The notes: a model not told the origin generated them from the letters alone. 64,000 nucleotides of DNA from Escherichia phage SP27 (LC494302.1); one strand, 5' to 3'; shown: positions 7,210 through 32,094, counted from the stretch's first letter. Numbers and translations are program-made.

Positions 7210-7236
7210 AAGGGTTGACTTCGGTCAGCCTTTTTT
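7210..7236 (+). terminator. terminator/promoter module
   Basis: AAGGGTTGACTTCGGTCAGCCTTTTTTG. Confidence 0.65.
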
Positions 7237-7272
7237 GTTATGATGTTGATATTAACTACAGAGGATAAAGTA

Positions 7273-7914
7273 ATGACTAAGCAAGAAATATTCAAAACTT
7301 TAATTGACATTTTGCGTCCATCAAAAACTCGTTGTGCGATGGAGTTTGATATTCCTTATGCTGAACGCGTAATCTTTCCACAAGTTAAAGCTGCTGGACT
7401 TACTTTGCTTGGAATGGGGATGTACTCTGTAGTAGTTGAACATAAAAACTATCCTGGACGAGCATTTAAAGTAACCACTTCACGCTGGGATGGTTTTCGT
7501 GCTTATGCAAAGTACTGCATTGAAAACGCAGGAACCAAGTTTCTTCCAGTGATCTACAGTGCCAACGAACAAGGAAACTTTGGATGGTATGAGATGGACA
7601 AGTACTATCCTATAATTAAACAAAAAAATAATTATGATGACTTTGTTAGTACTAAAATTGGAGATTTATATTCTTATGCACATGCTGGTCAGTACGCTAC
7701 TTCAGTGAATGATATGCGTGGAAATTCTGAAGAGATTGCTATTGCGACGGTCGCTGCTAACATCATGAAAGAGTTTCACGGGCGTTTTGTACCAGACATT
7801 CATTCAAGTAATGTAATGATGGATAAAGATGGGAATGTATTCATTACTGATCCTCTTTCGTGTGATGTGCGTAGAGAAATACCAATTACTGAAGAAGATC
7901 CAGTTTTTTATTGA
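7273..7914 (+). CDS. putative protein-kinase-like protein
   Basis: GAGGA RBS before ATG 7273; glycine-loop-like GMGMYSVVV, AFKV lysine, catalytic-loop-like DIHSSNVMMDKDGNVFITD. Confidence 0.45.
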   Translation: MTKQEIFKTLIDILRPSKTRCAMEFDIPYAERVIFPQVKAAGLTLLGMGMYSVVVEHKNYPGRAFKVTTSRWDGFRAYAKYCIENAGTKFLPVIYSANEQGNFGWYEMDKYYPIIKQKNNYDDFVSTKIGDLYSYAHAGQYATSVNDMRGNSEEIAIATVAANIMKEFHGRFVPDIHSSNVMMDKDGNVFITDPLSCDVRREIPITEEDPVFY

Positions 7915-7975: not shown

Positions 7976-8257
7976 ATGCGTTCATTTGAAAACTTAATAG
8001 GTAAGCATCTTTTATCTGAAATTGATGCAGACGTTAAAGAATTATCCAAATCAAAAAGTTACATTCATTTGGATGAACTATTTGTTAAGTACGGTGAGAT
8101 TGGTTTTAAGTCATTATTTGTTTTTACTATGAAAGTACATAGTTTAAAGTACTTCGATTTGAGTGCTAAAGATGGTGAACCGAATCTATATTACATGTAT
8201 TACCTTAAGAACAAAGATGAAGCTAATACATTACTCTCTGAATATATATTGGGGTAA
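7976..8257 (+). CDS. hypothetical protein
   Basis: AAGGA RBS; 93 aa. Confidence 0.55.
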   Translation: MRSFENLIGKHLLSEIDADVKELSKSKSYIHLDELFVKYGEIGFKSLFVFTMKVHSLKYFDLSAKDGEPNLYYMYYLKNKDEANTLLSEYILG

Positions 8258-8259
8258 AA

Positions 8260-8598
8260 ATGGAACAATATTTTGAATTAATAAACAAAGTATCATTTTA
8301 TGTAGTATCTTTGGTTTGGGTGTATTATATGTTTTGCTACATTATTGCATTCTTCCGATACACTACTTTATATGAACGTATCTACTATGATGCCCCAATT
8401 TCATTCTTGATGTTTTGTGCATGTACGTGGGGAATATTAGAAGTACTGATATGTGGGTATAGTACTGATGAATTAAATCTGGTATCGGTCTTGACTGGGT
8501 TTTCATTTGTTGTTATGATAGCTGCCGTTCCAGTATGGTTGTTCTTTGGACTAGTTCATCGCATTGATATATGGCGTTCTAATATCCCTGAAAAGTAA
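8260..8598 (+). CDS. small multi-TM membrane protein (family M)
   Basis: hydrophobic segments; C-terminal RSNIPEK motif shared with neighbours. Confidence 0.6.
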   Translation: MEQYFELINKVSFYVVSLVWVYYMFCYIIAFFRYTTLYERIYYDAPISFLMFCACTWGILEVLICGYSTDELNLVSVLTGFSFVVMIAAVPVWLFFGLVHRIDIWRSNIPEK

Positions 8599-8607
8599 GG
8601 ATTGGTA

Positions 8608-8949
8608 ATGATTTATTACACTAACATGTTTGCCTATGCTGTTGCTTGCATTTACATTGTTTACTTCTTATTTGGTGGAGTACTGTGCTTCTTTAAGTAC
8701 AAAACGTTGTTCAACCGAATGTACCCAAATCATCCAATTGTAGTTGTACTTTTGATTCTTTCAGTTTCTCAAATAATCGTTGAAACTACAATGGGTATCA
8801 GTAGTGTACATTATAGTTTTGGTACTATAGTAATTATTACTATGCTTATTGCATACATTTTAGTACTTGGATATGGTATCTTTGGTAATATTGGTATGAA
8901 AATGTATCATCGAATTAAAACATTACGTGATAATCTACCGGAGCGTTGA
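8608..8949 (+). CDS. small multi-TM membrane protein (family M)
   Basis: TAAGGA RBS before ATG 8608; C-terminal RDNLPER. Confidence 0.6.
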   Translation: MIYYTNMFAYAVACIYIVYFLFGGVLCFFKYKTLFNRMYPNHPIVVVLLILSVSQIIVETTMGISSVHYSFGTIVIITMLIAYILVLGYGIFGNIGMKMYHRIKTLRDNLPER

Positions 8950-8950
8950 T

Positions 8951-9295
8951 ATGTATAATTTGAACCTAATCTCATATATTATAACAACACTGTTTACATT
9001 CTATGCCTTTGTTGGTATAATCCTACTGTACTTTAAATTTTATAAAGTGTTTAACCGTTTCTATCCTTCAATGGAGAATGAGTTTTTCTTTGTGTTGTAC
9101 GTATGTTACACATTCATGGCTACATGTTTCACTGTAGTCGATGGTGTCATCGGCATTAAAACTGCTGCACCAAATGGTAGTACGCTGGTTGCATTTATTC
9201 TTACCGGATTCCTTGCAACTTATATTGCCTTCATTGCAACATGGTCAGTGGTTGAATTTCTCTTGCGACTACGAAAGAATATGCCGAATCGATAG
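8951..9295 (+). CDS. small multi-TM membrane protein (family M)
   Basis: GGAG before ATG 8951; C-terminal RKNMPNR. Confidence 0.6.
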   Translation: MYNLNLISYIITTLFTFYAFVGIILLYFKFYKVFNRFYPSMENEFFFVLYVCYTFMATCFTVVDGVIGIKTAAPNGSTLVAFILTGFLATYIAFIATWSVVEFLLRLRKNMPNR

Positions 9296-9304
9296 GAGAC
9301 ATAT

Positions 9305-9559
9305 ATGTTTGCATTGCGTAACAAAAACACTAAAGAAATATTATGTTTAGATACCGTATGGGATTGTGCGGGATCAACTACAGTTCTTGAAGAAGGAACT
9401 GGATATTGCGTGTTTGTTGTACATGATAGGAATGAACTCGAATTATTACTTGCTGAGTTCAATGCTGGTGGTAATCCTAACAGTACTGAATACCCTGAGA
9501 TTATCAATCCAGCACCACCAGGCTCTTATGAAATTCTACAACTGTGGGAGTTGAAGTAA
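9305..9559 (+). CDS. hypothetical protein
   Basis: AGGAG RBS; 84 aa. Confidence 0.55.
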   Translation: MFALRNKNTKEILCLDTVWDCAGSTTVLEEGTGYCVFVVHDRNELELLLAEFNAGGNPNSTEYPEIINPAPPGSYEILQLWELK

Positions 9560-9939
9560 TGCGTCAAATGCACAAAGTAACCGAGCTAAACAAGCGTCTG
9601 GTTAAACAATCAATGTTCGAGGATAAAGAGTCTTATTATAACTTTAAACGTGCAGTAGAGGCTGCTATCCACATTCAGAAGCTTAAAGAACGTGGTTGTA
9701 TTATTCTGGAAAATGGTTCGGAAGTTGTAACGGATGACTTTAGTGTAGCGTTTGATGTTTCACCTGACGGGACGCTATCAATGCCCCGCTTAGGAACTGG
9801 AAACATGACTGTTTGGGTTGGCTTCACTATGGGGAATGTACCTGGTACTGTGTACGTAGATGATGCGGAATTGAAAGACAGTTTCAAAAACTTATCGTAC
9901 CTTGAACCACAATACGCACATGAAATGAATTTATTTTGA
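9559..9939 (+). CDS. hypothetical protein
   Basis: GGGAG before ATG 9559, start overlaps upstream stop. Confidence 0.5.
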   Translation: MRQMHKVTELNKRLVKQSMFEDKESYYNFKRAVEAAIHIQKLKERGCIILENGSEVVTDDFSVAFDVSPDGTLSMPRLGTGNMTVWVGFTMGNVPGTVYVDDAELKDSFKNLSYLEPQYAHEMNLF

Positions 9940-9940
9940 G

Positions 9941-9998
9941 TTGACAAACACATTCAGTACTGTATAATGTTTATCAAGGGGATGAACTTCTCATCCCC
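9941..9998 (+). promoter_or_regulatory. PeSL-type cassette (sigma70-like promoter + leader stem-loop)
   Basis: TTGACA-17-TATAAT then hairpin AGGGGATGAACTTCTCATCCCC before gene 10016. Confidence 0.6.
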
Positions 9999-10015
9999 AC
10001 AATCGAGGAATTGTC

Positions 10016-10570
10016 ATGATTACTTTTAAGAAAACTGCTAACCACATCCATGAAATCTACATTAACGGTCACAAAGCTGGCCTTCTTCGTTTACTCGCCC
10101 ATCACCCTGATGCTACCGTATCTGATAATGAACCTAAAGATTGGCGTGTCTTTTTCTTTGGAAAGTACAGTGATTTTCAAGTATCAAACCTGAAGAACAT
10201 TCGTTCAGTATGCACGTTAACTGAAATTAAAGAAAAGTTAGCACAAGCATTGAAAACTAATCCAGATGGTGTTCTTCCACCTGATAACTTTGTAGAGAAA
10301 GGTTATGCCTTAGCTCATTTCAAAGATGGTACTATTCAATCTATCAGTACTGAATATGAATATCATTGGACTGAGTACTTCACTTATGGTTCGAGTAATA
10401 CATTGATGGATTCACGTAGTAAATTGGAAGAAGTACTGACTCGTATGAATGAACGCGAGCGTCAGTTATATGACAAACCAGAAATGTGGAGTTCAACTTA
10501 CATTGACCGTATTGACTATGTTATTATGACTCCAATCTTTGACACTGCTTACTATGATTCTTTGAAATAA
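10016..10570 (+). CDS. hypothetical protein
   Basis: preceded by PeSL-like promoter+hairpin and GAGGA RBS; 184 aa. Confidence 0.6.
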   Translation: MITFKKTANHIHEIYINGHKAGLLRLLAHHPDATVSDNEPKDWRVFFFGKYSDFQVSNLKNIRSVCTLTEIKEKLAQALKTNPDGVLPPDNFVEKGYALAHFKDGTIQSISTEYEYHWTEYFTYGSSNTLMDSRSKLEEVLTRMNERERQLYDKPEMWSSTYIDRIDYVIMTPIFDTAYYDSLK

Positions 10571-10581
10571 GGATAACTTAT

Positions 10582-10758
10582 ATGAAACTACGTACTCGTA
10601 ATCGACTGATGGATGCACTGTACCATGAACAGCTTTCACTGAATGAAGTGAAGCGTCAGTTAATGTACACATATCAGTTTCCCGCTCGCATTGCAAAACA
10701 ACGTGCTAAAGAATTGCTGAAAGAAGCAATAGAGTACTGGGAATCTGATTCGTACTAA
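10582..10758 (+). CDS. hypothetical small protein (59 aa)
   Basis: AAGGA RBS; ORF MKLRTRNRLMDALYHEQ... fills an otherwise empty gap; below track cutoff. Confidence 0.4.
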   Translation: MKLRTRNRLMDALYHEQLSLNEVKRQLMYTYQFPARIAKQRAKELLKEAIEYWESDSY

Positions 10759-10797
10759 TATTACGTGATATGTCACGTTAATTAAGTGAGGCGATAA

Positions 10798-11049
10798 ATG
10801 AAAATATTATTAGTTCTAATACTACTAATAGTTTTACCATTTACTTTAGTATCCCCTGGACTTGCATGGAATGTATTTGTGTACTTAGTATGTACTATTG
10901 TAGTAAATGGTATCTTGTTCTTAGTTCTATTCATAAATGGAATAGGACACGGTGGAGGATGGACCAGTACTGCTGATATCGTACATAAAACCACTATGTC
11001 TTTATTTGTAATGTGGAATTTGTTCTGGACTTGGTTTGTGTTCTTCTAA
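10798..11049 (+). CDS. hypothetical membrane protein
   Basis: GAGG RBS; strongly hydrophobic 83 aa. Confidence 0.55.
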   Translation: MKILLVLILLIVLPFTLVSPGLAWNVFVYLVCTIVVNGILFLVLFINGIGHGGGWTSTADIVHKTTMSLFVMWNLFWTWFVFF

Positions 11050-11057
11050 TTAAAAAT

Positions 11058-11429
11058 ATGAATATAGATTTGAAAGGTGCAACCCGAACTGTTATCCTCA
11101 TTGGGGAATACGCTATCAAGATTCCAACCTTCAAAAGCTGGAAGTTATTCCTAACTGGAATGATAGCTAACCTCAATGAACGTTCATGGATGCAGTACTC
11201 CAATCGTAGTGATAGTGGTATCTGCCCTACTTTGTGGTCATCATGTACAGGACTAGTAACTGTACAGAAACGTTGTAAGCCAGTTCAACATAGGGGTTTA
11301 TTTTGGGTGGAGTTGTGTGCTTTAGCATTGAATTCAGAGTTAAGTACTGACTTCTTTTATTCAGATGCGAAGCCAGAAAACTTTGGTTATCTGAATGGTA
11401 AGTTAGTTAAACTTGATTATGGAGATTAA
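11058..11429 (+). CDS. minimal protein-kinase-like protein
   Basis: internal ATG 11058 of track ORF; YAIKIP lysine motif, catalytic-loop-like DAKPENFGY, KLVKLDYG (DFG-like). Confidence 0.4.
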   Translation: MNIDLKGATRTVILIGEYAIKIPTFKSWKLFLTGMIANLNERSWMQYSNRSDSGICPTLWSSCTGLVTVQKRCKPVQHRGLFWVELCALALNSELSTDFFYSDAKPENFGYLNGKLVKLDYGD

Positions 11430-11430
11430 G

Positions 11431-11700
11431 ATGTACGCACTGTATAATAAAGAAAAGAAACGATTTGCTAAGGTTGAAATTTCGATTGATACCTTTGATA
11501 TGTTGGAGTACTGTATTGTGACGGACCTATATGCTAACTTGTATTACGTTCTTGATGACGTATCAGTACTGCAACGATTGCTTGAGAATTCCAAAAGTCA
11601 ATGCCAGGGCATCCATGATGGTTCATCTTATGAAACACCTGAGTGTTCCTACGGCTATCTGGACGGGTATGAGATTGTGAAGTTGGGGATTGTTGAATAA
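11431..11700 (+). CDS. hypothetical protein
   Basis: GGAG RBS before ATG 11431. Confidence 0.5.
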   Translation: MYALYNKEKKRFAKVEISIDTFDMLEYCIVTDLYANLYYVLDDVSVLQRLLENSKSQCQGIHDGSSYETPECSYGYLDGYEIVKLGIVE

Positions 11701-11702
11701 AG

Positions 11703-11731
11703 AAAAGGGTTGACTACGGTCAGCCCTTTTT
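11703..11731 (+). terminator. terminator/promoter module upstream of denV
   Basis: AAAGGGTTGACTACGGTCAGCCCTTTTTGCTATAAT. Confidence 0.65.
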
Positions 11732-11767
11732 GCTATAATCATTTCATCGAAACGAGAGGATGAATAC

Positions 11768-12283
11768 ATGACACGCATTAACTTAGTACACGTTAAAGAA
11801 CTTGCTGACCAACATCTGATGGCTGAATATCGTGAACTCCCACGTGTATTTGGTGCTGTACAAAAACACGTTCAAGCACGTAAGCGTGTACGTGATTTCA
11901 AAATTAACAGTACTTATCTGTTAGGTTCAGGTCATGTGACATTCTTTTACGACAAGTTGCTGTACTTACAGAAGCGTCATATCGATATTGTTAACGAATG
12001 TTTGCGTCGTGGTATGAAGATTCAAAACACTGAAGTAAACGACATTAGCGGCTTCCCTGCTGAGTTTTGTAATGACTACGTACCAACGGAGTCAGAGATT
12101 AAAATGTCTCGTGATCGTTTGATTGAGAAGCTCCAGATGAAGCCTACGTGGTATAAGTTTACTGATGTTGAATGTCCACAGTACGTTAAAGATATGCAGA
12201 ACGTAAGTAGTAAGAACGAATCTAGTACTGATATGTTCGACGAAATTGAAGAACAAATCAAAGATGAAATGAATAATTATTAA
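11768..12283 (+). CDS. denV: pyrimidine dimer DNA glycosylase / endonuclease V
   Basis: N-terminal 130 aa closely match T4 DenV as recalled ([45 protein letters not shown]); GAGG RBS; about 40 aa C-terminal extension. Confidence 0.9.
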
Positions 12284-12321
12284 AGGAAAGGGTTGACTTC
12301 GGTTACACAAAGGAACATAAC

Positions 12322-12516
12322 ATGTTATTAGTATATTCAACGCGTTTCTGGATTTCTTTTATTGTACTATCGCTAATCGGCTTCGGTTTGAGTATACTCT
12401 TTTCGTGGGATGAATTGGGTACATGGTATTATGAAGTCCCGTGGTACATGAAGATAGCTCCTTGTTATGCGGCATTGTTCGTGTCATTCCTTATTGTTGT
12501 CTTCAGCGAGGATTAG
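12322..12516 (+). CDS. hypothetical small membrane protein
   Basis: AAGGAA RBS; two hydrophobic segments. Confidence 0.5.
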   Translation: MLLVYSTRFWISFIVLSLIGFGLSILFSWDELGTWYYEVPWYMKIAPCYAALFVSFLIVVFSED

Positions 12517-12567
12517 TTGATGTAGTATGTGCTACACCAAAGTATTTGGATATTTTAGATATAAACA

Positions 12568-12596
12568 TTGACACCTGTTATATCTTTCTGTATTAT
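12568..12596 (+). promoter_or_regulatory. sigma70-like promoter
   Basis: TTGACA-17-TATTAT upstream of 12623. Confidence 0.5.
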
Positions 12597-12622
12597 GTAC
12601 ATCACCAAATGAGGAATACAAC

Positions 12623-12982
12623 ATGGCATCTTTAAGTGAAATCGCAGAATACAACCCACTAACAATCTCAACAATTCAACGTACAAAAACTTTTTATTTC
12701 CGTCCTGCTGATGGATGGAAACGTGGAATGAATGGTGACTATCGAGTACTGGAAGATTCACTAATCGAGCGTATCAACTCTGAACTACAGAAGTATGAAG
12801 GTGTTAAAGTTGTGCGTTCAACTTCTCGTTATTTTGAGTACTACATTGAGTCTTCAACTGTAAATGAAAACTCATCATTATCGGTGGACAACACTGATAT
12901 TCTTCGTAATGCAGTTGGTATGTTATGCAACATTGCAGAAGAAATGGGATTAACTATTAGTACTATGAGTGAGTTGGAATAA
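12623..12982 (+). CDS. hypothetical protein
   Basis: TTGACA/TATTAT promoter upstream; GAGGA RBS; 119 aa. Confidence 0.55.
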   Translation: MASLSEIAEYNPLTISTIQRTKTFYFRPADGWKRGMNGDYRVLEDSLIERINSELQKYEGVKVVRSTSRYFEYYIESSTVNENSSLSVDNTDILRNAVGMLCNIAEEMGLTISTMSELE

Positions 12983-12985
12983 CAT

Positions 12986-13013
12986 AAAGGGTTGACTTCG
13001 GTCAGCCCTTTTT
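12986..13013 (+). terminator. terminator/promoter module
   Basis: AAGGGTTGACTTCGGTCAGCCCTTTTTGCTATAAT. Confidence 0.65.
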
Positions 13014-13049
13014 GCTATAATTATTTCATCAACTGAAGAGGGTAAAGAA

Positions 13050-13820
13050 ATGACCAGAGAAGCACGCAGCATTCAAATTCAGAAAAACTTCAACTCCATG
13101 ATGGTTGCTCTTGAGTGTTTGCTCGATGATAGCAGTACTGTAAAAAGTATGGTTGTCAGTGGTGCTCCTGGTGTTGGTAAGACTTACACCTTGTCCCAAC
13201 GTCTCCAGAAGGCTCATGACGCAGCAGAATGGAACGTAGCTACTATCAGTGGTAAGATGACTACACTGGCTCTGTACGAAGTTCTGTACAAGAATCGTCA
13301 CAGCACCAACGTGTTAGTACTGGATGATATGGACAGCATCTTTGATTCTGAAGACGGTATGAACCTGCTCAAAGCTGTTTTGGATAGTGGTAAGCGTACT
13401 GTATCTTATATGACTAGCTCTAAGTACTTGAGCACTAACGGCATTCCTAATAGCTTTGATTTTAATGGTCGCATCGTATTCATTACTAACAAAGATTTAG
13501 CGTTAGATGCTAAAGCTAAAACTAAAATGTCTGCTCATTATGCTGCTCTTATGTCTCGTTCTGTGTACGTGGATTTACAGATTCAGACTAAAAGTGATAT
13601 CATGATTCATATTGAAAATGTAATGACTAAGACTAATATCCTTGCATCTAAAGGTGTTAACAGTAACGGTAGTAAAGCAATTCTGAACTGGATGTTAAAA
13701 CATGAAGATAATCTTCGTGCACCATCCCTGCGTATGCCTTTGTTGATTTCAGCAGTATATAACAACAATCCGTATGATTGGGAAGAACAATGTGAAAACT
13801 TGTTCCTTGAGAAAATCTAA
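13050..13820 (+). CDS. P-loop NTPase (AAA-like ATPase)
   Basis: Walker A GAPGVGKT and Walker B-like VLVLDDMD; AGAGGG RBS. Confidence 0.6.
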   Translation: MTREARSIQIQKNFNSMMVALECLLDDSSTVKSMVVSGAPGVGKTYTLSQRLQKAHDAAEWNVATISGKMTTLALYEVLYKNRHSTNVLVLDDMDSIFDSEDGMNLLKAVLDSGKRTVSYMTSSKYLSTNGIPNSFDFNGRIVFITNKDLALDAKAKTKMSAHYAALMSRSVYVDLQIQTKSDIMIHIENVMTKTNILASKGVNSNGSKAILNWMLKHEDNLRAPSLRMPLLISAVYNNNPYDWEEQCENLFLEKI

Positions 13821-13829
13821 TTACATATG

Positions 13830-13858
13830 TTGACAGTACTACCATAGTGTAGTACTAT
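13830..13858 (+). promoter_or_regulatory. sigma70-like promoter with AGTACT palindrome in spacer
   Basis: TTGACA-17-TACTAT; AGTACTACCATAGTGTAGTACT inverted repeat; upstream of membrane array. Confidence 0.5.
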
Positions 13859-13887
13859 AACTTAATATTCACCACCGGAGATACGAT

Positions 13888-14229
13888 ATGCTTGAGTTTT
13901 TTAATTCAGATACAATGCTTGGTATCACGCTAATTTACATGTTTGTATTCTTGTTTTATCATTCAATTGTAATTAGTCTTTGGTATTTTAAAAGGAAAGT
14001 TGTTTTTAAATTGTATTCGTATGATAATGTACTCTTAGTAGTATATAGCATTATACAAGGTGGGTTTATTTTATTTGGTGTGATGACATATGTGATTTAC
14101 ATGTTACAAATTGATAATACACCACACATTACACAATATGTTGTGTTTTCAGGACTAATCGTCTGGTTATTGGTGTGTACTCTGTATTTTATTATTAAAG
14201 CTCGTGATAACTTTAAATGGGGATTCTAA
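13888..14229 (+). CDS. small multi-TM membrane protein (family M array)
   Basis: GGAG RBS; WYFKRK motif; first of 8 tandem small membrane genes. Confidence 0.6.
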   Translation: MLEFFNSDTMLGITLIYMFVFLFYHSIVISLWYFKRKVVFKLYSYDNVLLVVYSIIQGGFILFGVMTYVIYMLQIDNTPHITQYVVFSGLIVWLLVCTLYFIIKARDNFKWGF

Positions 14230-14567
14230 TGTTAGAATTTTTTAAATCAGATACAATGATTAGTATTACTTTGATTTATCTGTTTGGTTTTTTCTTTTAT
14301 CATGCACTAGTTGTAGTACTATGGTATTTTAAAAAGAAAATTGTTTTTAAACTGTATCCAGTGAGGAATTCATCACTAGTTCTTTACACACTTGTTCAAG
14401 GTTTGTTTGCAATTGTTGGTCTTATGGCACACTTAATTTATTGTGCCAATCCTCACTTGAACTCAATCTCACAATATATTGTATTCTTTGGGTTGTTCAT
14501 TTGGTTAGTTGTATACTTAATCCATCTCATTATTCATGGTAGAGATAAAATTCGCGGAGACTTCTAA
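14229..14567 (+). CDS. small multi-TM membrane protein (family M)
   Basis: ATG overlaps upstream TAA; near-duplicate N-terminus MLEFFKSDTM. Confidence 0.6.
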   Translation: MLEFFKSDTMISITLIYLFGFFFYHALVVVLWYFKKKIVFKLYPVRNSSLVLYTLVQGLFAIVGLMAHLIYCANPHLNSISQYIVFFGLFIWLVVYLIHLIIHGRDKIRGDF

Positions 14568-14914
14568 TGTTTGAAGCTTATCTTGAGTTTTTAAGGAGTA
14601 GTCCAGTTGCACATTCACTTGCAGGGATTATTCTAACAACTTATGTATCATTTTGGGTAGTTATGTTTCTAGGATGGTATTTTAAACGACAATTCTATAA
14701 ACGTAATGGTGAAGATTTTATGAATTCTGTCATTAATCAATCGTTGTTTGCATCAACATTGATTGCATGTATTGTAGCAACACTCACAGGAAAGGTACTA
14801 CCAGCTTTTTCCGCAGTTTACGGCACACTTGGGATGATATGTTTAACTTTTATATTGACCATTAAAATTTGTTGTGTTATGATTGAACTTCGAAATAAGA
14901 TACCGGAGGAATGA
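14567..14914 (+). CDS. small multi-TM membrane protein (family M)
   Basis: ATG overlaps upstream stop; WYFKRQ motif; C-terminal RNKIPEE. Confidence 0.6.
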   Translation: MFEAYLEFLRSSPVAHSLAGIILTTYVSFWVVMFLGWYFKRQFYKRNGEDFMNSVINQSLFASTLIACIVATLTGKVLPAFSAVYGTLGMICLTFILTIKICCVMIELRNKIPEE

Positions 14915-15249
14915 TGGAGTACTTTATTGATTTACTGCCGTGGTATATGAAAGTTAGTACCATGTACTATATTATTAGTGCTGGATTCTACTTTCTGATG
15001 TGGTTCTTTAAACGACCAATTTCAGTATTCATCGCTGATAACATGTTGCAATTAAAATTACACGCATGGTTTGGTATGGCGATGATTATGCCTATTATTC
15101 ACTACTCAATGATTAGTAGAGGTTTCCGTTCTAATGGTGAACCAATTGTATTAGTATTCTATTGGGGTTCAACTATTGCATATGTAAGTTTGTTGTTGTT
15201 CCCAGTCGTTCATAAGTTACGTGCTAAAGTTCCTGATGCGAGGTACTAA
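14911..15249 (+). CDS. small multi-TM membrane protein (family M)
   Basis: GGAGG RBS; ATGA overlap; C-terminal RAKVPDARY. Confidence 0.6.
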   Translation: MMEYFIDLLPWYMKVSTMYYIISAGFYFLMWFFKRPISVFIADNMLQLKLHAWFGMAMIMPIIHYSMISRGFRSNGEPIVLVFYWGSTIAYVSLLLFPVVHKLRAKVPDARY

Positions 15250-15563
15250 TGGATATAGTAACATTGATTTACACGTTGTATTCATTCTATTTCATTATGT
15301 GTTGGGTTGGATTTTTATTTGTACTCAAGATGTTTGATTATGTTGAAAAACAGATAAAAGAATTTTGTATTCCTTTTATCGGTTCAACCATTATTAGTGT
15401 TTCTTGTGTGTATTTTTTGGTTTTTGATCCACCAGATAACACTGCAATGATTGACTTGATGTTACTACCAACAACTGTTACTTTTTTATGTAGTCTGATG
15501 CCGCCGATTAGCCGTGGACTAACAGAATTTAGACGCAATCAAAAGCGTAAACGAGGGATGTAA
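15249..15563 (+). CDS. small membrane protein
   Basis: overlapping start/stop; hydrophobic; basic C-terminus. Confidence 0.55.
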   Translation: MDIVTLIYTLYSFYFIMCWVGFLFVLKMFDYVEKQIKEFCIPFIGSTIISVSCVYFLVFDPPDNTAMIDLMLLPTTVTFLCSLMPPISRGLTEFRRNQKRKRGM

Positions 15564-15931
15564 TGGAAATTGCTCTTATTATCTTAACTGCTATGCTGTT
15601 TATTAGTACTGTGGTTATAATTGGTAAATTCTTTTGTGTATCATTTTTAGAAACGGTATACGATGAAATTGCTGATGATTATGAATTACAAGCCGGATTT
15701 TTCATTACGTATTGGCTTAGTTTATTTTGTCTAGTCATTGCTTGGATTTTACATATCTTTAAATGGGGTATGGTAGACGGTGATCCTATTATGGCAATTA
15801 TTGTTCTAGTGTTTGGTATCCTTGGTGGTGCAGTGCATAATCTAATGGTTATCTGGCAAACTGTTCAATATGTTTTGGTTCCCTATTTCGAAAAGATGCA
15901 CAGTACAATTAAAAAACGTAAACGAGGTTAG
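15563..15931 (+). CDS. small membrane protein
   Basis: overlapping start/stop; hydrophobic; basic C-terminus KKRKRG. Confidence 0.55.
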   Translation: MEIALIILTAMLFISTVVIIGKFFCVSFLETVYDEIADDYELQAGFFITYWLSLFCLVIAWILHIFKWGMVDGDPIMAIIVLVFGILGGAVHNLMVIWQTVQYVLVPYFEKMHSTIKKRKRG

Positions 15932-15932
15932 T

Positions 15933-16295
15933 ATGAACGGGATAGAATTATCTTTCGTTGGTCAATTACTAGTAATGGCGTATACATTTATCTTCTCACT
16001 GAATGCATTCGTGTGCATTGGGAAGTACTTCCATAAGCGACCATTATCAAATATATATGATGTAATCCAAAAGAGATATAGTCCAGCATATACTGTGTTG
16101 GGTACAGTATTCAATTTTGGTTTTATTGTATTAATAATTGGACTGTTCACATCCTCTTTGAATACAATAACCTTCGGTCTTATGATATGTTCATTGGTAT
16201 TAGCCGTAATTATATGTTGTTTAGTACTGCACCTTGTGGTACTATTGTATATAAAGATCTCTGAAATCCACCAACGTTTGGGTATGAGGAAATAA
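15933..16295 (+). CDS. small membrane protein
   Basis: GAGG RBS before internal ATG 15933 of track ORF. Confidence 0.55.
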   Translation: MNGIELSFVGQLLVMAYTFIFSLNAFVCIGKYFHKRPLSNIYDVIQKRYSPAYTVLGTVFNFGFIVLIIGLFTSSLNTITFGLMICSLVLAVIICCLVLHLVVLLYIKISEIHQRLGMRK

Positions 16296-16296
16296 T

Positions 16297-16668
16297 ATGA
16301 GTTACCGTGAGATATTTTCCATTATTTCAATTATTATGTTCAGTACTGGAACACTGGTATGGTTATTATACTTCTTCTGTATTAATCCAGTGTATAATAT
16401 GTTATGTAATATTAAATCAAGTGCCGGATATATCACTTTTATGGTCTTTATGGGATATTATTGTCTAAGCATTTTAGGTGTTGTTTTGGTTGTTATATTT
16501 GATGTGGGACCAAATAGTGATGGTATGGAAATACATGAATTAATAACCATGTTTGGATGTATGATACCAACAGCACTACTGTTTGTAGCTACTGGTAGTG
16601 GATTGATAAAATTATATAATTATTTAAAATCCATTCATAATTCCATTCATAATAAGCGTATGTCATAA
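16297..16668 (+). CDS. small membrane protein
   Basis: AGGA RBS; hydrophobic 123 aa. Confidence 0.55.
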   Translation: MSYREIFSIISIIMFSTGTLVWLLYFFCINPVYNMLCNIKSSAGYITFMVFMGYYCLSILGVVLVVIFDVGPNSDGMEIHELITMFGCMIPTALLFVATGSGLIKLYNYLKSIHNSIHNKRMS

Positions 16669-16676
16669 TAAAAAAT

Positions 16677-16700
16677 CCAGTACTATTAAGTACTGGATGT
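16677..16700 (+). terminator. rho-independent terminator
   Basis: CCAGTACTATTAAGTACTGG hairpin. Confidence 0.5.
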
Positions 16701-16713
16701 ATAAGGAGTTATG

Positions 16714-17373
16714 ATGAAATCAAAATTAGGTTTGTTTTATAAAAACTATTTTGTTAAACAACGTAAATTTATAAAAAAATATTTCTCTGGCGAGAAGTCT
16801 AGTCCTATAATCTTTAAAAGACCAAGTTATAATACTTACTTAGCTGGTGCTAAACAGTCTAAGAAATTTATTACTCTTTTACATAAAAACAAAATTAAAG
16901 CTTCTTATGTTGAAACGAGAAGAAACTCATCAATAACTCCTGGTGATTTTATTGAGTACGGATGTTTCAATATTAAGTACAATGATAATACATACTTTAT
17001 GGATATTGATTGTAATACATCCAATCTTTTTAACATTGTAGTAAATCCATTAAAACAATATAATGTTTATGGTGATTCTATTATCAAATTAATCAAAAAC
17101 AAAGATAGCTTTGATTTTGAAATAAATGTTTTAGATGATAATTTTGACGAAGTACCAGTAAACCCTGAAATCTGTGATATTTTAAACAGTTTAAAAGGTA
17201 GTACCTACACTATATCATCTGATTTAATGTTTCAGTACTCATTAATCCATAAAGATATTGAAAAGTATATTGAATGCTCCAGAATTTTGAATTTTCTCTA
17301 TGATGAATTTAAAAAGAGTTCTAAAATAACTGCATACACTTTGTACAATATTCCTAAAATGGTGAATCTTTAA
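16714..17373 (+). CDS. hypothetical protein
   Basis: AAGGAG RBS; last + strand gene, 3' end overlaps the convergent - strand gene by about 20 nt. Confidence 0.55.
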   Translation: MKSKLGLFYKNYFVKQRKFIKKYFSGEKSSPIIFKRPSYNTYLAGAKQSKKFITLLHKNKIKASYVETRRNSSITPGDFIEYGCFNIKYNDNTYFMDIDCNTSNLFNIVVNPLKQYNVYGDSIIKLIKNKDSFDFEINVLDDNFDEVPVNPEICDILNSLKGSTYTISSDLMFQYSLIHKDIEKYIECSRILNFLYDEFKKSSKITAYTLYNIPKMVNL

Positions 17374-17849: not shown

Positions 17850-19019
17850 CTAAGCAGAAGGCATATCCTTCATCTTAATAAATGAAAATTGTGTACCAGT
17901 ATTTGTGGTTTGATCAGTAAAATATGAATTACTACCAGCCCAGTACAATTCATTATTAACTATACAATATATAACAGAACTCGAACTCTGTGAATACACA
18001 CGACTTATATTTGATGGTTCTACTCCAGTACTGAACTGAACCGAACCCAACTGTGAACTTGGTATCACATCAGTTGGTCTACCTAAACCATTAACACCAG
18101 CCCCACCACCACATGTATATACCCCAGTACTATCAGTTGATATATTAACATAACCATTTCCAGCATTTTCAAATAGTATTTCACTGGGAACAACACCAAA
18201 TCCTGTAAGATCTATTTTCCTGAATGTAGTATAAACCGTAGAACCGCCAACACCTCTTCCACCATAATCATTAGAACCAGCCATATAGATACTATATCCA
18301 GAACTTCCTAAACATAATAACTGTACGTTGTCATATAATATTTGCATAGATATAACGTTATCAGGAATACTCAATACCGTAAAAGTAGTTAAAGAAGAAC
18401 TTCCAATATTACTACCAACCGATGTTCCACATCTGTAGTACTTACCGCCCTTTATATAATGGAATGATGAACCACCTAATTTATGTGCTCCTATTGCACT
18501 TACCTCAGTATCTATGAGAATGGGAGATACAACTTTGTTATTAACACCTAACTCAGATCTACTGTTCATACCGAACCCATATAAACGACCATCTAACATC
18601 AATATTAGTGTACTACCTGATGTACCCGCTGATGTAAATTCTATATTCTTTATCTGTGACACGTCAATACCTACAAATAATGAAGTTACTTCAGTCCAGT
18701 TAACATATGAACCACTAGCCCCAAAATATCCACCCATGTATAGTCCGGCACAATATAACTTATTATCAACCGTCTTTATTAATGTACCGGATACACACGC
18801 CCAAAAATCATCAACTTCATAGGGTACATGTACCCAACCACCTAATACATCACTATCATTCCCTGTTCCTAATTTGTAGTTCGATCCAGAACCACGCATA
18901 TACATATTCCCTGTACTATAAAGTAATCCGACATGTAATTGACTACCATCCAATTTCTTTATTTCGGGAAGAGTTGGTTTAATATTTCCGTACTTTAACA
19001 TTCTTCCAAAAGGTAACAT
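17850..19019 (-). CDS. RCC1-repeat (beta-propeller-like) protein, family R
   Basis: true start MLPFGRM at 19019 with GGAGG RBS (track ORF extends into leader); RCC1-like motifs e.g. GSNDYGGRGVGG. Confidence 0.8.
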   Translation of the reverse strand: MLPFGRMLKYGNIKPTLPEIKKLDGSQLHVGLLYSTGNMYMRGSGSNYKLGTGNDSDVLGGWVHVPYEVDDFWACVSGTLIKTVDNKLYCAGLYMGGYFGASGSYVNWTEVTSLFVGIDVSQIKNIEFTSAGTSGSTLILMLDGRLYGFGMNSRSELGVNNKVVSPILIDTEVSAIGAHKLGGSSFHYIKGGKYYRCGTSVGSNIGSSSLTTFTVLSIPDNVISMQILYDNVQLLCLGSSGYSIYMAGSNDYGGRGVGGSTVYTTFRKIDLTGFGVVPSEILFENAGNGYVNISTDSTGVYTCGGGAGVNGLGRPTDVIPSSQLGSVQFSTGVEPSNISRVYSQSSSSVIYCIVNNELYWAGSNSYFTDQTTNTGTQFSFIKMKDMPSA

Positions 19020-28475: not shown

Positions 28476-29585
28476 TTATTTTGGTAAATCAATTTTAGTA
28501 AAGACTGCAACATCCTCGATTGCACCTGGAATGGCGTAATACGATCCAGTACTATACACATCTCCATTTTTGGTTAATATCGATGTCAAACCATCACTAA
28601 AAAGAACATCCCTAATCTCACTAACTTCAACGGGTAATTGTAAATTGGTAGCACTATATATAGCACCAGTTTGAGAATTGTTTAATCCCAAACCACGGTT
28701 CGCCCCAACACCCTTCTGATATGTACTAGTAATTACCATTTGTGTAGCAGTATTTAAGGCAGGTGAATTCGTCATAAACAACGGAGAACTATTAGGCAAA
28801 GTACTTAAAGGAACTGCACGGAATGTAGTCGTACCTGAACTAAGAAAGTTTGGAGTTTGACCACATACGAAATATGATGTACCATTATAGTAATTTAATG
28901 CATTACCACCAATGGCTGCATCGATTACACCAGAACTACGCAATCCCCAAGTGTTAATTTGTGTTTGGTTCCCCGTACCATGCTGCCCACTACTATTCCA
29001 TCCAGAACTATATAGCTTATTATCTAATGTAAGATACATACTATCATTCGCATTGGTCATTACTTTACGAACGTTCGTAGCACATTGAGTTAATGTGTAA
29101 ATTGATGATGAACCAATACCCAAAGAACCACGATATCCATTATCTCCTGCACCATAGAGTACTGAATTAGTGCTAAGTACAAATATTAAACCATTTGTAC
29201 ATACAATATTAGCAATTTCACTTACTGGTATAGCATTGGTAAACCAATTAGTTCTTTCAACTAATACAGTACTGTAAGAAGTAGTTGTAGAAGATGAGAA
29301 CCAGTACGTTTGACCTGATGTCCATATCGTATTATCATTTTTAATAATAACAAGTGTACGATCACCCACGAAAAAATTAGAAACATCTGCACTTACTAAT
29401 GTCCACGAAGACACCGTGTTGGTATTACCATTTCCAGATTCACCACCTTGATTTCTACCTATGTAATATAAATCATGTGAATCAGTCAATAAGAATTGGC
29501 CTTGGGTAGAAGCACCAACTTTAATTATTTTTTTAGGACCAGGGACAATATTTCCATACATAATCATTCTTCCAAAAGGTAACAT
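28476..29585 (-). CDS. RCC1-repeat protein, family R
   Basis: true start MLPFGRM at 29585; RBS overlaps stop of upstream paralog (no cassette between them). Confidence 0.8.
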   Translation of the reverse strand: MLPFGRMIMYGNIVPGPKKIIKVGASTQGQFLLTDSHDLYYIGRNQGGESGNGNTNTVSSWTLVSADVSNFFVGDRTLVIIKNDNTIWTSGQTYWFSSSTTTSYSTVLVERTNWFTNAIPVSEIANIVCTNGLIFVLSTNSVLYGAGDNGYRGSLGIGSSSIYTLTQCATNVRKVMTNANDSMYLTLDNKLYSSGWNSSGQHGTGNQTQINTWGLRSSGVIDAAIGGNALNYYNGTSYFVCGQTPNFLSSGTTTFRAVPLSTLPNSSPLFMTNSPALNTATQMVITSTYQKGVGANRGLGLNNSQTGAIYSATNLQLPVEVSEIRDVLFSDGLTSILTKNGDVYSTGSYYAIPGAIEDVAVFTKIDLPK

Positions 29586-29593
29586 ATTCCCTC

Positions 29594-30796
29594 CTATTGT
29601 TGCCATAACTGCGATGGCATTAATGTTAGTGTAGTAATACTATAAGTGCCATCTGGCAATCTACCACCATTTCCATTCCAGCCACCACATGCATATAATT
29701 TATAATCTTTAGTAATTATTATGGTTCTGCTCCAATCTTTAGATGCCATAAGAACATTGTCATAACCACTACTTATTGCACTAAGATTAAAAATATTCCA
29801 AGTTCTAACTAATGTATTAGTTCCATTACCTTCTTGACCATATGAGTTAGCACCACTACTTCTAACATATGGTGCGTATTGTGCCATAGGTGCACCAATT
29901 GATGCATTTCCCATATTACTTGGACAAATAAAAGTACTGTACTTACTTACATCAACCGTGACCGATGTGTTCCTAATTGGTGTTAGCTGATTTACCGATG
30001 TAGTCGTACCATTACCAGCTTGTCCAGAACTGTTAGCCCCGCTATAATATACAGACCCACCAGTAGTAAACCACCAAGTAACATCGTATGTAGTACTAAT
30101 ATGTTCTACATTACTAATCACGAATTTGTTCAAATATACAACAGAACTACCACCACATCCACTTTCACCAAAGTTATCCTTACCACAAAACCATGCATCT
30201 TTATTTGATTTGATATAGTGCGTTCCTTGTAATGAACATGCCATATGTGTAACTTCACCCATATTAGTCATAACTGTGAGTGTAGGGATGGAATTTTTAT
30301 TCCCAGAGCCACATTCACCATTAGTATTTCTTCCACACGCAATTACTCTACCATCGGTTAATAATATTCTAGTACTTTCACCTATATATACACTCTTGAT
30401 CATATTAGCCATAACACCTATTTTATTAAATGCAACAGTAACATCAGTCCATGTTGTCAAATAACCATTAACAGGTGTTGCATCTCCATAATCAGAAAAT
30501 GCACCAACCGACCCAGTGTAGTATATTTTATTATCCAAATCAATCATCAATGAACCTTGAACACCAAGCCAAAAGGCTGCACAGTTCCTTGCAAGTACTG
30601 TAAATGACGAAACTGCTGCTGAATTCCCAAGACCAAATTGATAAAAGTTATTACTACCATAACCATATAAAGTATTAGTTGGGTTATGGAGATACATACA
30701 GTTTGTATAATGTTGTTGTAAAACATCTGAGAACTCTACAGGTTCTGGACCTGGTGCAATATTTGCGTACTTAACCATTCTTCCAAAAGGTAACAT
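29594..30796 (-). CDS. RCC1-repeat protein, family R
   Basis: MLPFGRMVKYANIAP start; motifs GSNNFYQFGLGN, GRNTNGECGSGN, GANSSGQAGNG. Confidence 0.8.
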   Translation of the reverse strand: MLPFGRMVKYANIAPGPEPVEFSDVLQQHYTNCMYLHNPTNTLYGYGSNNFYQFGLGNSAAVSSFTVLARNCAAFWLGVQGSLMIDLDNKIYYTGSVGAFSDYGDATPVNGYLTTWTDVTVAFNKIGVMANMIKSVYIGESTRILLTDGRVIACGRNTNGECGSGNKNSIPTLTVMTNMGEVTHMACSLQGTHYIKSNKDAWFCGKDNFGESGCGGSSVVYLNKFVISNVEHISTTYDVTWWFTTGGSVYYSGANSSGQAGNGTTTSVNQLTPIRNTSVTVDVSKYSTFICPSNMGNASIGAPMAQYAPYVRSSGANSYGQEGNGTNTLVRTWNIFNLSAISSGYDNVLMASKDWSRTIIITKDYKLYACGGWNGNGGRLPDGTYSITTLTLMPSQLWQQ

Positions 30797-30842
30797 ATTT
30801 CCCTCCTTTATTCATTATACTATATTTAATACAAAAAGAAAT
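30797..30842 (-). promoter_or_regulatory. conserved array promoter/leader cassette
   Basis: near-identical copy. Confidence 0.5.
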
Positions 30843-30861
30843 GCCAGTATCAAGTACTGGC
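30843..30861 (-). terminator. array hairpin terminator
   Basis: GCCAGTACTTGATACTGGC + U-tract. Confidence 0.6.
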
Positions 30862-30867
30862 ATAATA

Positions 30868-32046
30868 TTATCGGTTAAATTTAAAATCTGTTATGTGTGT
30901 CCATGTATGATTTAATGGGGTACTCATTGGTGTAAAGCCAGCAGGGTCTGACAAAGCTGTACCACGTGCGTACATAAATTGATTGCCAGTACAATCCATT
31001 ATAGCATAAGAACGTGTTGCTGTGCCACATTTGAACCCAACTGCACTACTTGGGGTCGGTAATACTTCAAATGTAGGTGCATTTGAACTACCACCCCCAT
31101 CTTTTGTTCCAGCTATGTACAGAACTCCATTAGTATCAATGATTAAGTTAGTCCAATATGCTTGTTCTCGACCAGCATAAAAATATGTTAAATCACCGGG
31201 TACAAATGGTAACGTTCCTTTATATATTGTGGTATTAACATTCACTGGTGCACCAGCTACACCCCATGAACTCATATAGTTTCTCCCACTTGCGTAGAAT
31301 GTAGTTCCTTTACCGTAAAGTATTAATGTTGCTTGACTTGTTCGCATTGCATTATATTCAAACTCAGGATCATCAGTAGCGTCCTTAAAAATCTGTGTCC
31401 ATGTTGTTATATTGCCAGTAGTTGTAACACCCATTTGATAATAATAATTATCACCAGTAGCATAGAATTCTTTAGGGCCAGTTTGTACAATTGCATTCCC
31501 ATTAGTTAACCAAAAATCTAATGTATTAGTCTTGATCTTGGTTGGTGTGTAATTCGCCACGGTATTTCCTTTTCCGAAATAACCATTAGCGTTATTTCCA
31601 TGACCCCATAAATCACCATTAGTTGTGCGTAGGAATAATGTACCAGTATTGAATCCAACTTTTTCTATAGTACTTATGTCAATACCAACAGTCGTGTACT
31701 TCGTTGTAAAATCTTGAAAAGTACTCCAATAATTAGATGAACCATTAAACATGGTTTGTCTACCAGTGTACTTCACTTTATTATCGTTAGTGATAAGTAA
31801 TGTCCCCCACACTGACGCGAACATTAACTTAACATTTTCCATAACAAAGTATGGCTTACCGTATGCTGACGCGGTAGTGTTTAAACCTAATAGTTGTCCA
31901 TCATTACTACAACCCCATACTTCGCCGTTATCCAAAAGCATCAACATAGTAGGTTTGCCGGATGATACATCCAAAAAGAAATCTTTTGGTGTTGGTACAC
32001 CAGGTACAATATTTCCGTACTTAACCATTCTTGTAAAAGGTAACAT
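30868..32046 (-). CDS. RCC1-repeat protein, family R (first gene of the array)
   Basis: true start MLPFTRM at 32046 with GGAGGG RBS; motifs GHGNNANGYFGKGN. Confidence 0.8.
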   Translation of the reverse strand: MLPFTRMVKYGNIVPGVPTPKDFFLDVSSGKPTMLMLLDNGEVWGCSNDGQLLGLNTTASAYGKPYFVMENVKLMFASVWGTLLITNDNKVKYTGRQTMFNGSSNYWSTFQDFTTKYTTVGIDISTIEKVGFNTGTLFLRTTNGDLWGHGNNANGYFGKGNTVANYTPTKIKTNTLDFWLTNGNAIVQTGPKEFYATGDNYYYQMGVTTTGNITTWTQIFKDATDDPEFEYNAMRTSQATLILYGKGTTFYASGRNYMSSWGVAGAPVNVNTTIYKGTLPFVPGDLTYFYAGREQAYWTNLIIDTNGVLYIAGTKDGGGSSNAPTFEVLPTPSSAVGFKCGTATRSYAIMDCTGNQFMYARGTALSDPAGFTPMSTPLNHTWTHITDFKFNR

Positions 32047-32094
32047 AAATCCCTCCTTATTCATTATATCATATTTACCCCATAAAGAAAACCC

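Follow-up and report, generated by a model that had tools for sequence, protein, structure and literature searches.

Two gene arrays of Escherichia phage SP27 encode a divergent family of predicted three-helix membrane proteins, candidates for superinfection exclusion in RaK2-like jumbo phages

The DNA analysed here, a stretch of 64,000 nucleotides from Escherichia phage SP27 (LC494302.1; hereafter the window), carries two arrays of small membrane-protein genes, A1-A3 (the A run) and B1-B8 (the B run). Almost certainly, these arrays encode one old, divergent superfamily of proteins with three transmembrane (TM) helices, which is confined to jumbo phages of the RaK2/121Q type, is predicted to have its N-terminus outside and its C-terminus inside, is organised in two translationally coupled sigma70 operons and keeps its B subtypes in order. 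Eleven scattered 'hypothetical proteins' are now one family with a predicted topology, motifs, an operon structure and a limited distribution. The array proteins probably act at the host membrane. By analogy with Imm of phage T4, the single most likely mechanism is protection of the envelope (superinfection exclusion), to which we assign a probability of roughly 0.3.

A preliminary description of this DNA had reported three genes at 8260-9295 and eight at 13888-16668. All eleven open reading frames (ORFs) are present on the plus strand at these coordinates, and the proposed size range of 104-123 amino acids holds after revision of the starts following the annotation of Escherichia phage vB_EcoM_G17 (G17). 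Better placed starts are 8608 (ATG; or 8602, TTG) for A2, 8951 for A3, 14229 for B2, 14914 (or 14911) for B4 and 15933 for B7. Across 8000-17000, the window shares 98% identity with Escherichia phages vB_EcoM_G17 and Sharanji, and this region also matches the entire 121Q/PBECO4/JP4 group (Asteriusvirus jumbo myoviruses, ~350 kb). The counterparts of the two runs in 121Q are gp207-209 (A) and gp224-232 (B). In all records inspected, hypothetical protein is the sole annotation of the array genes. The eleven genes are as follows.

A1, 8260-8598, plus strand: 112 amino acids, 3 TM, tail RSNIPEK; phrog_19285 at E = 4e-59
A2, 8608-8949, plus strand: 113 amino acids (115 from TTG 8602), 3 TM, tail RDNLPER
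A3, 8951-9295, plus strand: 114 amino acids, 3 TM, tail RKNMPNR; phrog_19285 at E = 4e-4
B1, 13888-14229, plus strand: 113 amino acids, 3 TM, WYFKRK, tail RDNFKWGF; only in some genomes of the genus
B2, 14229-14567, plus strand: 112 amino acids, 3 TM, WYFKKK, tail RDKIRGDF
B3, 14567-14914, plus strand: 115 amino acids, 3 TM, WYFKRQ, tail RNKIPEE
B4, 14914-15249, plus strand: 111 amino acids (112 from ATG 14911), 3 TM, WFFKRP, tail RAKVPDARY
B5, 15249-15563, plus strand: 104 amino acids, 3 TM, tail RRNQKRKRGM; the most divergent subtype
B6, 15563-15931, plus strand: 122 amino acids, 3 TM, KFFC, tail HSTIKKRKRG
B7, 15933-16295, plus strand: 120 amino acids, 3 TM, KYFHKR, tail HQRLGMRK
B8, 16297-16668, plus strand: 123 amino acids, 3 TM, YFFC, tail HNSIHNKRMS; ends the B unit

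Pairwise blastp relates only A1 to A2 (1.7e-9), A2 to A3 (1.3e-5) and B1 to B2 (1.6e-37, 51% identity) clearly. In PHROGs, a scan that covered ten members (A1-A3 and B1-B7, not B8) splits the proteins over six main unannotated families (19285, 19454, 19046, 27396, 33258 and 26405) with weak cross-hits, and B3 and B5 weakly match phrog_16874. Since BLAST and PHROGs link few members, profile-profile comparison was used. Ortholog alignments were made from the window together with JNE01, A4, Turkey5, ph0011 and fEgEco12, and the profiles were compared by hhalign, with the following results.

A versus B1/2: E = 4.7e-9 over 95 columns
A versus B3: E = 4.7e-8 over 99 columns
B3 versus B4: E = 7.7e-7 over 85 columns
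B6 versus B8: E = 7.5e-6 over 114 columns
B6 versus B7: E = 4.5e-5 over 38 columns
Merged group G1 (A, B1/2, B3, B4) versus merged group G2 (B6, B7, B8): E = 1.5e-6 over 105 columns, colinear
G2 (B6, B7, B8) versus B5: E = 2.3e-5 over 96 columns
G1 versus B7: E = 7.9e-6

The links A to B1/2, A to B3, B3 to B4, B6 to B8, G1 to G2 and G2 to B5 all run over the full length and are colinear. Reversed profiles, which keep composition and helix spacing, served as the first control and gave 0.013 or worse. The second control, an unrelated membrane protein of the window (X1), reached 0.05 at best against any profile, reversed ones included. The paralogy that had been proposed is supported, because the profile links beat both controls, and all eleven proteins are best read as a single, very divergent superfamily of which B5 is the weakest link. 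No further members were found in the 64-kb window, where every other six-frame ORF scored E > 0.08.

X1 (10798-11049, plus strand; 83 amino acids, two to three hydrophobic segments) and a second small ORF, X2 (12322-12516, plus strand; 64 amino acids, two hydrophobic segments), lie between the two arrays. Both are unrelated to the array family (X1 profile E of at least 0.05), and both are highly conserved, being 94-98% identical even to their counterparts in JNE01 and A4.

The membrane architecture was assessed in 57 family members from seven phages. Three strong hydrophobic segments are seen per protein in hydropathy plots; the preliminary description had allowed for three to four, but four were not seen. 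In 53 of the 57 members, all three 17-residue windows have a Kyte-Doolittle value of at least 1.3. Lysine and arginine together amount to 7.5 residues per protein in loop 1 plus the tail versus 1.0 in the N-terminus plus loop 2, a pattern found in 56/57 members. This positive-inside distribution of charge is the reason for predicting a periplasmic N-terminus and a cytoplasmic C-terminus. An AlphaFold2 model of B3 (predicted local distance difference test score, 75) has a short N-terminal helix and three long helices, with TM1 at residues 13-38, a short cytoplasmic helix at 42-53, TM2 at 55-74 and a helix formed by TM3 plus the tail at 82-110. The genes at the same position in phage GAP32 carry the record note '3 transmembrane domains, TMHMM and Phobius'. 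Topology prediction and alignment, which had been suggested as checks on the arrays, therefore both come out in their favour, with three TM helices, a predicted N-out/C-in orientation and members that are related. The proteins are predicted to be three-pass inner-membrane proteins with a periplasmic N-terminus and a basic C-terminal tail in the cytoplasm.

Two motifs anchor the alignments across the family. The first, an aromatic residue followed by F and [K/C/H/N], ends TM1. The WYFK(R/K)K motif that was described at this site occurs in that form as WYFKRK in B1 and WYFKKK in B2; WYFKRQ (B3) and WFFKRP (B4) are near forms, and further variants are FFK/YFK (A2, A3), FFR (A1) and FFC/YFH (B6-B8). 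The second anchor, hydrophobic-[R/H]-x-[N/K]-hydrophobic, stands right after TM3 and is followed by P-[E/D] or by a run of K/R. The R-x-N-x-P-E tail that had been presented as conserved is exact in A1 and A2 only and is not found in the other nine. A relaxed version, R-x-[NK]-hydrophobic-P-[EDN], covers five proteins (A1, A2, A3, B3 and B4), and the remaining six tails read [R/H]-x-x-hydrophobic and then basic residues. Within the G1 alignment, F39 and R109 (B3 numbering) are invariant. In RaK2, neighbouring paralogs terminate in EFRNKLPD and EFHNKLPD, a pair that links tails of the R type (A, B1-B4) with those of the H type (B6-B8).

The tails also have a role at the nucleotide level. Start and stop codons had been described as overlapping, which is correct for the successive junctions from B1 to B6, where the overlap is one base (TAATG or TGATG); at B6-B7, B7-B8 and A2-A3, the genes are one base apart. 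At eight of the nine internal junctions, the Shine-Dalgarno sequence of the next gene is contained in the final three to five codons of the preceding one. For instance, I-P-E-E is encoded by ATA CCG GAG GAA, K-R-G-M contains CGA GGG ATG, and G-M-R-K contains ATG AGG AAA. The tail codons CCG GAG of A2 are the Shine-Dalgarno sequence for A3, and GGAGGA in the tail of B3 is that for B4; dual-coding junction sites include 14900-14916, 15550-15565 and 16280-16299. Since the Shine-Dalgarno sequence is inside the tail codons, conservation of the tail in the window is partly a nucleotide-level constraint. However, A1 retains I-P-E-K with CCT GAA and without a Shine-Dalgarno sequence, and the NKLPD ending persists in RaK2 paralogs that lie 15 bases apart, so that the motif appears to be real at the protein level too. 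As judged from the junctions, the genes within each operon are translationally coupled.

Both arrays are parts of longer transcription units, whose other predicted elements are listed here.

7212-7244, plus strand: promoter cassette, hairpin-embedded and of sigma70 type, GGGTTGACTTCGGTCAGCC-T6-GTTATGAT; G17 annotates a terminator at the same hairpin
7273-7914, plus strand: kinase-like gene that heads the A1-A3 operon; 'putative protein kinase' in G17, NCBI conserved domain PHA00451
12989-13021, plus strand: promoter cassette, hairpin-embedded consensus sigma70, GGGTTGACTTCGGTCAGCCCTTTTTGCTATAAT; heads the ATPase gene and B1-B8
13050-13820, plus strand: AAA-type P-loop ATPase, homolog of T4 NrdC.10, 256 amino acids; co-transcribed with the B run and not a family member
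13830-13858, plus strand: second promoter-like site, TTGACA-17-TACTAT, in the 67-base gap before B1; a consensus match only
16675-16698, no strand assigned: terminator hairpin closing the B operon, a palindrome between a stretch of A and a stretch of T, AAAAAATCCAGTACTATTAAGTACTGGAT; terminator in G17

The kinase-like gene had no Pfam match in a Pfam scan. The cassette at 7212-7244 heads a unit made up of this gene, the ORF at 7976, A1-A3 and the ORFs at 9305 and 9559. The sigma70 promoters, with an extended -10, sit exactly in the intergenic gaps, and the -35 hexamer is within the stem of the preceding terminator hairpin (AAAGGGTTGACTTCGGTCAGCCCTTTTTGCTATAAT). The position of the -35 inside the terminator stem means that the terminator of one unit is fused to the promoter of the next. 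Ahead of the ATPase gene, this cassette is conserved across JNE01, A4, ph0011, fEgEco12, RaK2, Munch, EJP2 and all Asteriusvirus loci examined. From the sigma70 consensus we infer early transcription by host RNA polymerase, and both operons are probably early.

Four copies of this terminator/promoter cassette are present in the window, all on the plus strand (1359-1390, 7212-7244, 11707-11739 and 12989-13021). In their layout, the stem GGGTTGAC-loop-GTCAGCCC-T5 holds the -35, and a consensus sigma70 promoter has an extended -10, TGCTATAAT. Convergent on the B operon are twelve consecutive ORFs of 251-433 amino acids (17850-32064, minus strand). One of the twelve, at 17850-19085, was scanned and has RCC1-like repeats, with matches to the RCC1-like domain and the RCC1 repeat of Pfam. 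At the positions of the twelve, related records give 'DNA condensation protein' or 'regulator of chromosome condensation'. A minus-strand ORF run opposite the array is also present in JNE01, A4, Munch, EJP2 and the metagenomic contig L015, which comes from an uncultured relative.

Topology and predicted timing bear on a role of the paralogs in lysis timing, in which they would act as holins, antiholins or pinholin-like proteins and control permeabilisation for a signal-anchored endolysin. Class I holins such as lambda S105 are proteins of ~105 amino acids with three TM helices, an N-out/C-in orientation and a charged cytoplasmic C-terminal tail. The array proteins match them in size, in the number of helices, in the predicted orientation and in the basic cytoplasmic tail. 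In RaK2-like phages, the endolysin carries a TM domain at its N-terminus, and none of their proteins has been assigned as the holin (PMC5259590). However, no match to a holin family came up in Pfam or, for the ten members scanned, in PHROGs, and the endolysin homolog of 121Q, gp532 (PMC5259590), is far from gp207-209 and gp224-232. The promoters look early, and early expression of a holin would kill. Furthermore, eleven copies are far above any known lysis cassette. Lysis timing is thus highly improbable.

The distribution of the family is narrow. In the RaK2-like jumbo phages examined, the ATPase always precedes a run of genes for proteins of ~105-125 amino acids. Outside Asteriusvirus, the arrays that follow it are these.

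RaK2: 8 family members (ORF309-316), with one soluble ORF in between
EJP2: about 7 members
Munch: about 4 members
GAP32: 6 members (GAP32_522-527), 'Membrane protein, 3 transmembrane domains'
Metagenomic contig L015: 6 members

Hidden Markov models (HMMs) of the window family match the RaK2 members, which are clear orthologs, with E from 7e-10 to 2e-34 (3e-19 for the B5 ortholog), and only the terminal ORF316 is weak at 3e-3. In EJP2, the best match is 8e-16 and most members lie at 2e-3 to 9e-3; Munch gives a single match at 2e-10. The matches in GAP32 are weak, with three at 1e-4 to 3e-4, one at 9e-3 and two genes without a match. No comparable array follows the ATPase in the T4-like phage RB3, Vibrio phage SD25 or PA5oct.

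Database searches agree with this picture. An 11-sequence profile searched against 5.8 billion proteins retrieved 32 clusters, all of the same phage lineage. A 57-sequence family-wide alignment retrieved only 14 clusters from the same proteins; this profile was too diluted, and profiles of subfamilies performed better. An exhaustive hmmsearch of 1.84 billion proteins with the G1 profile gave 20 representatives, all of the same type and of 101-119 amino acids except for two short fragments (56 and 89 amino acids); all 16 that were inspected share the tail type, and no bacterial or characterised relatives were among the matches. A permissive tblastn of B2 (E <= 5) returned 45 records, all from RaK2-like jumbo phages with Escherichia, Klebsiella, Salmonella or Erwinia as hosts. 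The notes 'Phi92_gp233/231/234' in the annotation of ph0011 were dropped as a lead, as this search matched RaK2-like jumbo phages only. To judge from these searches, the family is restricted to RaK2/121Q-type jumbo phages of Enterobacterales. The 'T4-like' label of the preliminary description is loosely right for the window, which has some T4 genes and, with denV at 11768-12283 and the NrdC.10-type ATPase, is in part syntenic with T4 (denV to nrdC.10), but the phage is a RaK2-like jumbo myovirus.

Truncated or frameshifted orthologs of B7, B3 and B5 are present in some deposited genomes (P0028, P0031 and P0026, which are the Salmonella phages SD-6_S16 and SD-15_S21 and an E. coli-labelled record) and may be pseudogenes or assembly errors. 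In GAP32, a 105-amino-acid protein with three TM helices is encoded directly upstream of a second AAA ATPase, which is phiKZ ORF208-like (GAP32_509-510, L012 404-1932). Within this region, GAP32 therefore pairs a small membrane protein with an AAA ATPase a second time.

The subtypes are also arranged in a conserved order. In the Asteriusvirus genomes tabulated (the window, fEgEco12, JNE01 and A4), the order is B1/2, B3, B4, B5, B6, B7, B8. RaK2 has B3, B3, B1/2, B4, B5, B6, B8, and the metagenomic relative has B3, B4, B5, B6, B7, B8. Such conservation means that the set is old and that each subtype is long-lived and non-redundant. It fits a heteromeric membrane complex, in which the paralogs would be subunits of a channel, ring or docking platform built by the phage, each subtype would have its own position and coupling would supply matched amounts. 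The order is kept across Asteriusvirus and the uncultured relative and largely in RaK2, purifying selection acts on every subtype, one-base overlaps with internal Shine-Dalgarno sequences are typical where subunits are produced in a constant ratio, and the conserved N-terminal helix, TM1 and juxtamembrane motif could be a packing interface. However, subtype content varies, since B1 is optional, B7 is missing from RaK2 and B1/2 from the metagenomic relative; Munch and GAP32 have about 4 and about 6 poorly matching members, and the A run is in a separate operon. A complex of this kind is rather doubtful overall. A more specific version, in which the ordered, coupled paralogs (seven or more) form a single early structure with no counterpart in model phages, is distinctly unlikely; the A-run paralogs and optional duplicates would then be exchangeable tuning subunits.

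The constant neighbourhood of the ATPase raises another possibility, namely that the paralogs are its membrane partners and serve as anchors or substrates that recruit it to the membrane. In every RaK2-like phage examined and in the metagenomic relative, the array follows the ATPase in one transcription unit, and the conserved cytoplasmic motifs could bind a common partner. The NrdC.10-type ATPase itself is found in more than 1,300 phage records, however, and in RB3, Vibrio phage SD25 and PA5oct no such membrane genes lie alongside it. The alleles of ATPase and array also assort independently, A4 having 96.5% identity in the ATPase and 25-67% in the array, and ph0011 58% and 73-88%, respectively. 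Moreover, the A run adjoins no ATPase. A partnership with the ATPase is very unlikely, and a deep functional link between ATPase and array was ruled out as the main idea on account of the missing neighbours outside RaK2-like phages and the independent assortment.

Two allelic types of the ATPase are present in one genus, at ~97% (121Q, PBECO4, A4) and ~58% identity (ph0011, JNE01, WPEC3, CRJP21, UE-S1), and the protein is often mis-annotated as 'thioredoxin'. G17 and JP4 have an extra ~1.4 kb just upstream of the ATPase gene, which in JP4 is annotated as a homing endonuclease; the window is without this insertion. The alleles and the insertion together hint at gene conversion associated with homing.

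Sequence evolution was followed at two distances. In close comparisons (ph0011, fEgEco12), the ratio of nonsynonymous to synonymous substitution rates (dN/dS) is 0.10-0.38 for the array genes and 0.02-0.31 for their neighbours. The array genes are real, and purifying selection on them is somewhat relaxed. Against JNE01 and A4, identity is 86-97% for the genes that separate the two runs (10016-12516), with a single gene below 93%; it is 24-36% for A1-A3 and 25-67% for B1-B8, with synonymous change (dS) saturated. Copy number also varies; B1 is present or absent among genomes, JNE01 has a duplicate of B5, and the A run comprises one to four genes. Substitutions were counted by region in orthologs that are 60-99.9% identical. 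The fraction of differing residues is 0.12 in the N-terminus, 0.13 in TM1 and 0.11 in loop 1, and it is 0.24 in TM2, 0.18 in loop 2, 0.27 in TM3 and 0.18 in the tail. Thus, substitutions concentrate in TM2 and TM3.

The array genes are legitimate candidates for exclusion or immunity, because their promoters are predicted to be early and the proteins to be embedded in the membrane with a periplasmic N-terminus, as in Imm. The divergence of the arrays, their copy-number polymorphism and the substitutions in TM2 and TM3 are features of the kind expected from conflict and speak for exclusion. Under an Imm-like mechanism, host RNA polymerase would transcribe both operons soon after infection, and the products would insert into the inner membrane of the host. 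There they would form a module that protects the envelope in the manner of T4 Imm, HK97 gp15 or colicin immunity proteins. A common scaffold would consist of the conserved N-terminal helix, TM1 and the juxtamembrane motif, and the helices of each paralog, chiefly the variable TM2-TM3 hairpin, would bind or block a different class of incoming pore-former. Possible targets are pore-forming bacteriocins or, in superinfecting phages, the tape-measure or ejection proteins. In this way, the infected cell would be closed to competitors through the long latent period of a jumbo phage.

Several observations weigh against exclusion. Two non-membrane ORFs, at 9305 (35%) and 16714 (32%), are equally diverged from JNE01 and A4, which indicates that divergence between sublineages is not peculiar to the arrays. 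A variable periplasmic face, which had been predicted, was not borne out, since variation shows no excess on the periplasmic side (inside versus outside, p = 0.43). Neither in sequence (Pfam, PHROGs) nor in fold (structure search) did the proteins resemble Imm, Sp, Sie or colicin immunity proteins, and the literature on RaK2, CBB, Sharanji, JP4 and jumbo-phage comparative genomics does not mention the family. To our knowledge, exclusion proteins are single genes and never ordered sets of seven or more paralogs. Early timing is itself a prediction from the promoter consensus. In addition, the order, the coupling and the retention of every subtype point to subunits of one machine or to fixed host targets. 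A fixed co-functional module fits the order and the purifying selection at least as well as does an arms-race battery. Because the order is conserved, the genes are coupled in translation and the membrane helices vary, a complex and a set of host modulators both remain serious rivals.

Host modulators would be effectors of takeover or counter-defence, with each paralog binding a different inner-membrane protein of the host, such as a transporter, a component of respiration, division or secretion, or a membrane-acting abortive-infection effector. Such binding would reprogramme the cell or neutralise defences at the membrane. The predicted early operons also hold the kinase-like gene and other small early genes, the variation lies in the membrane helices, and subtypes that are stably orthologous across phages of related Enterobacterales hosts fit conserved targets. 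PHROGs places phrog_16874 in the category 'moron, auxiliary metabolic gene and host takeover', a label derived from the annotation 'membrane protein' alone. However, no similarity to known defence or anti-defence proteins was seen for the ten members compared with the PADLOC defence models (no family at E <= 0.1), an eleven-member array has no known precedent, and 24-67% identity between sublineages that infect one and the same species is a high level of divergence if host targets are conserved. We consider host effectors about as doubtful as the heteromeric complex.

Other comparisons with known families also gave little. Pfam returned no match at E <= 1 for ten members and none at E <= 0.01 for B8. 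Among PHROGs, A1-A3 and B1-B7 match no annotated family except phrog_16874, 'membrane protein'. The AlphaFold2 model of B3 had no match in the PDB, and its matches in BFVD were weak (best E = 0.14) and included a 'putative membrane protein' of CBB. Sequence alone establishes nothing surprising about these proteins; the family is well defined and uncharacterised. The RaK2/121Q giant phages are in therapy development, yet no function is known for more than 80% of their genes. If the arrays are an exclusion battery, they would show a long-latency jumbo phage guarding its cell against many competitors and would extend the newly described mechanism of Imm and the tape-measure protein to arrays of many paralogs. 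The design of phage cocktails would be affected, since co-applied phages could be excluded. If a heteromeric complex is the right answer, a new membrane machine built by a phage would have been found.

Among known systems, the nearest are the arrays of related phages. GAP32_522-527 and RaK2 ORF309-316 belong to the same family and share its size, its build of three TM helices and its position directly downstream of the ATPase. They are annotated just as hypothetical or membrane proteins, and no publication in the RaK2 and jumbo-phage literature treats them as a family. Class I holins share the predicted topology with the array proteins, but neither the position in a lysis cassette nor late expression (the timing being inferred) was found for the arrays. 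Colicin immunity proteins have ~110-180 amino acids and 3-4 TM helices and are located in the inner membrane, and the array proteins are alike in these respects. They recognise their targets via membrane helices, and variation in the arrays is likewise concentrated in TM2 and TM3. In contrast, colicin immunity proteins are encoded by plasmid-borne single genes paired with a toxin, and the array has no toxin partner; neither homology in Pfam nor a toxin-like neighbour was found. Imm is encoded by a single gene of 83 amino acids between T4 genes 42 and 43. This small protein of the inner membrane has its N-terminus in the periplasm, binds the tape-measure protein of an incoming phage and blocks pore formation, and HK97 gp15 and colicin immunity proteins have been named as its parallels (bioRxiv 10.64898/2026.03.06.709160). 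The array proteins differ from Imm in that they have no detectable homology to it, with no Pfam match to its family (Imm_superinfect), and form eleven paralogs of 104-123 amino acids in ordered arrays instead of one gene. Like Imm and HK97 gp15, they are predicted to be small, helical inner-membrane proteins with a periplasmic N-terminus; like Imm, they are products of a lytic myovirus, in a region with local synteny to T4 (denV to nrdC.10), and binding of an incoming pore-former within the membrane is plausible for them by the same analogy. T4 Imm is the closest candidate for a functional analogue of the array proteins.

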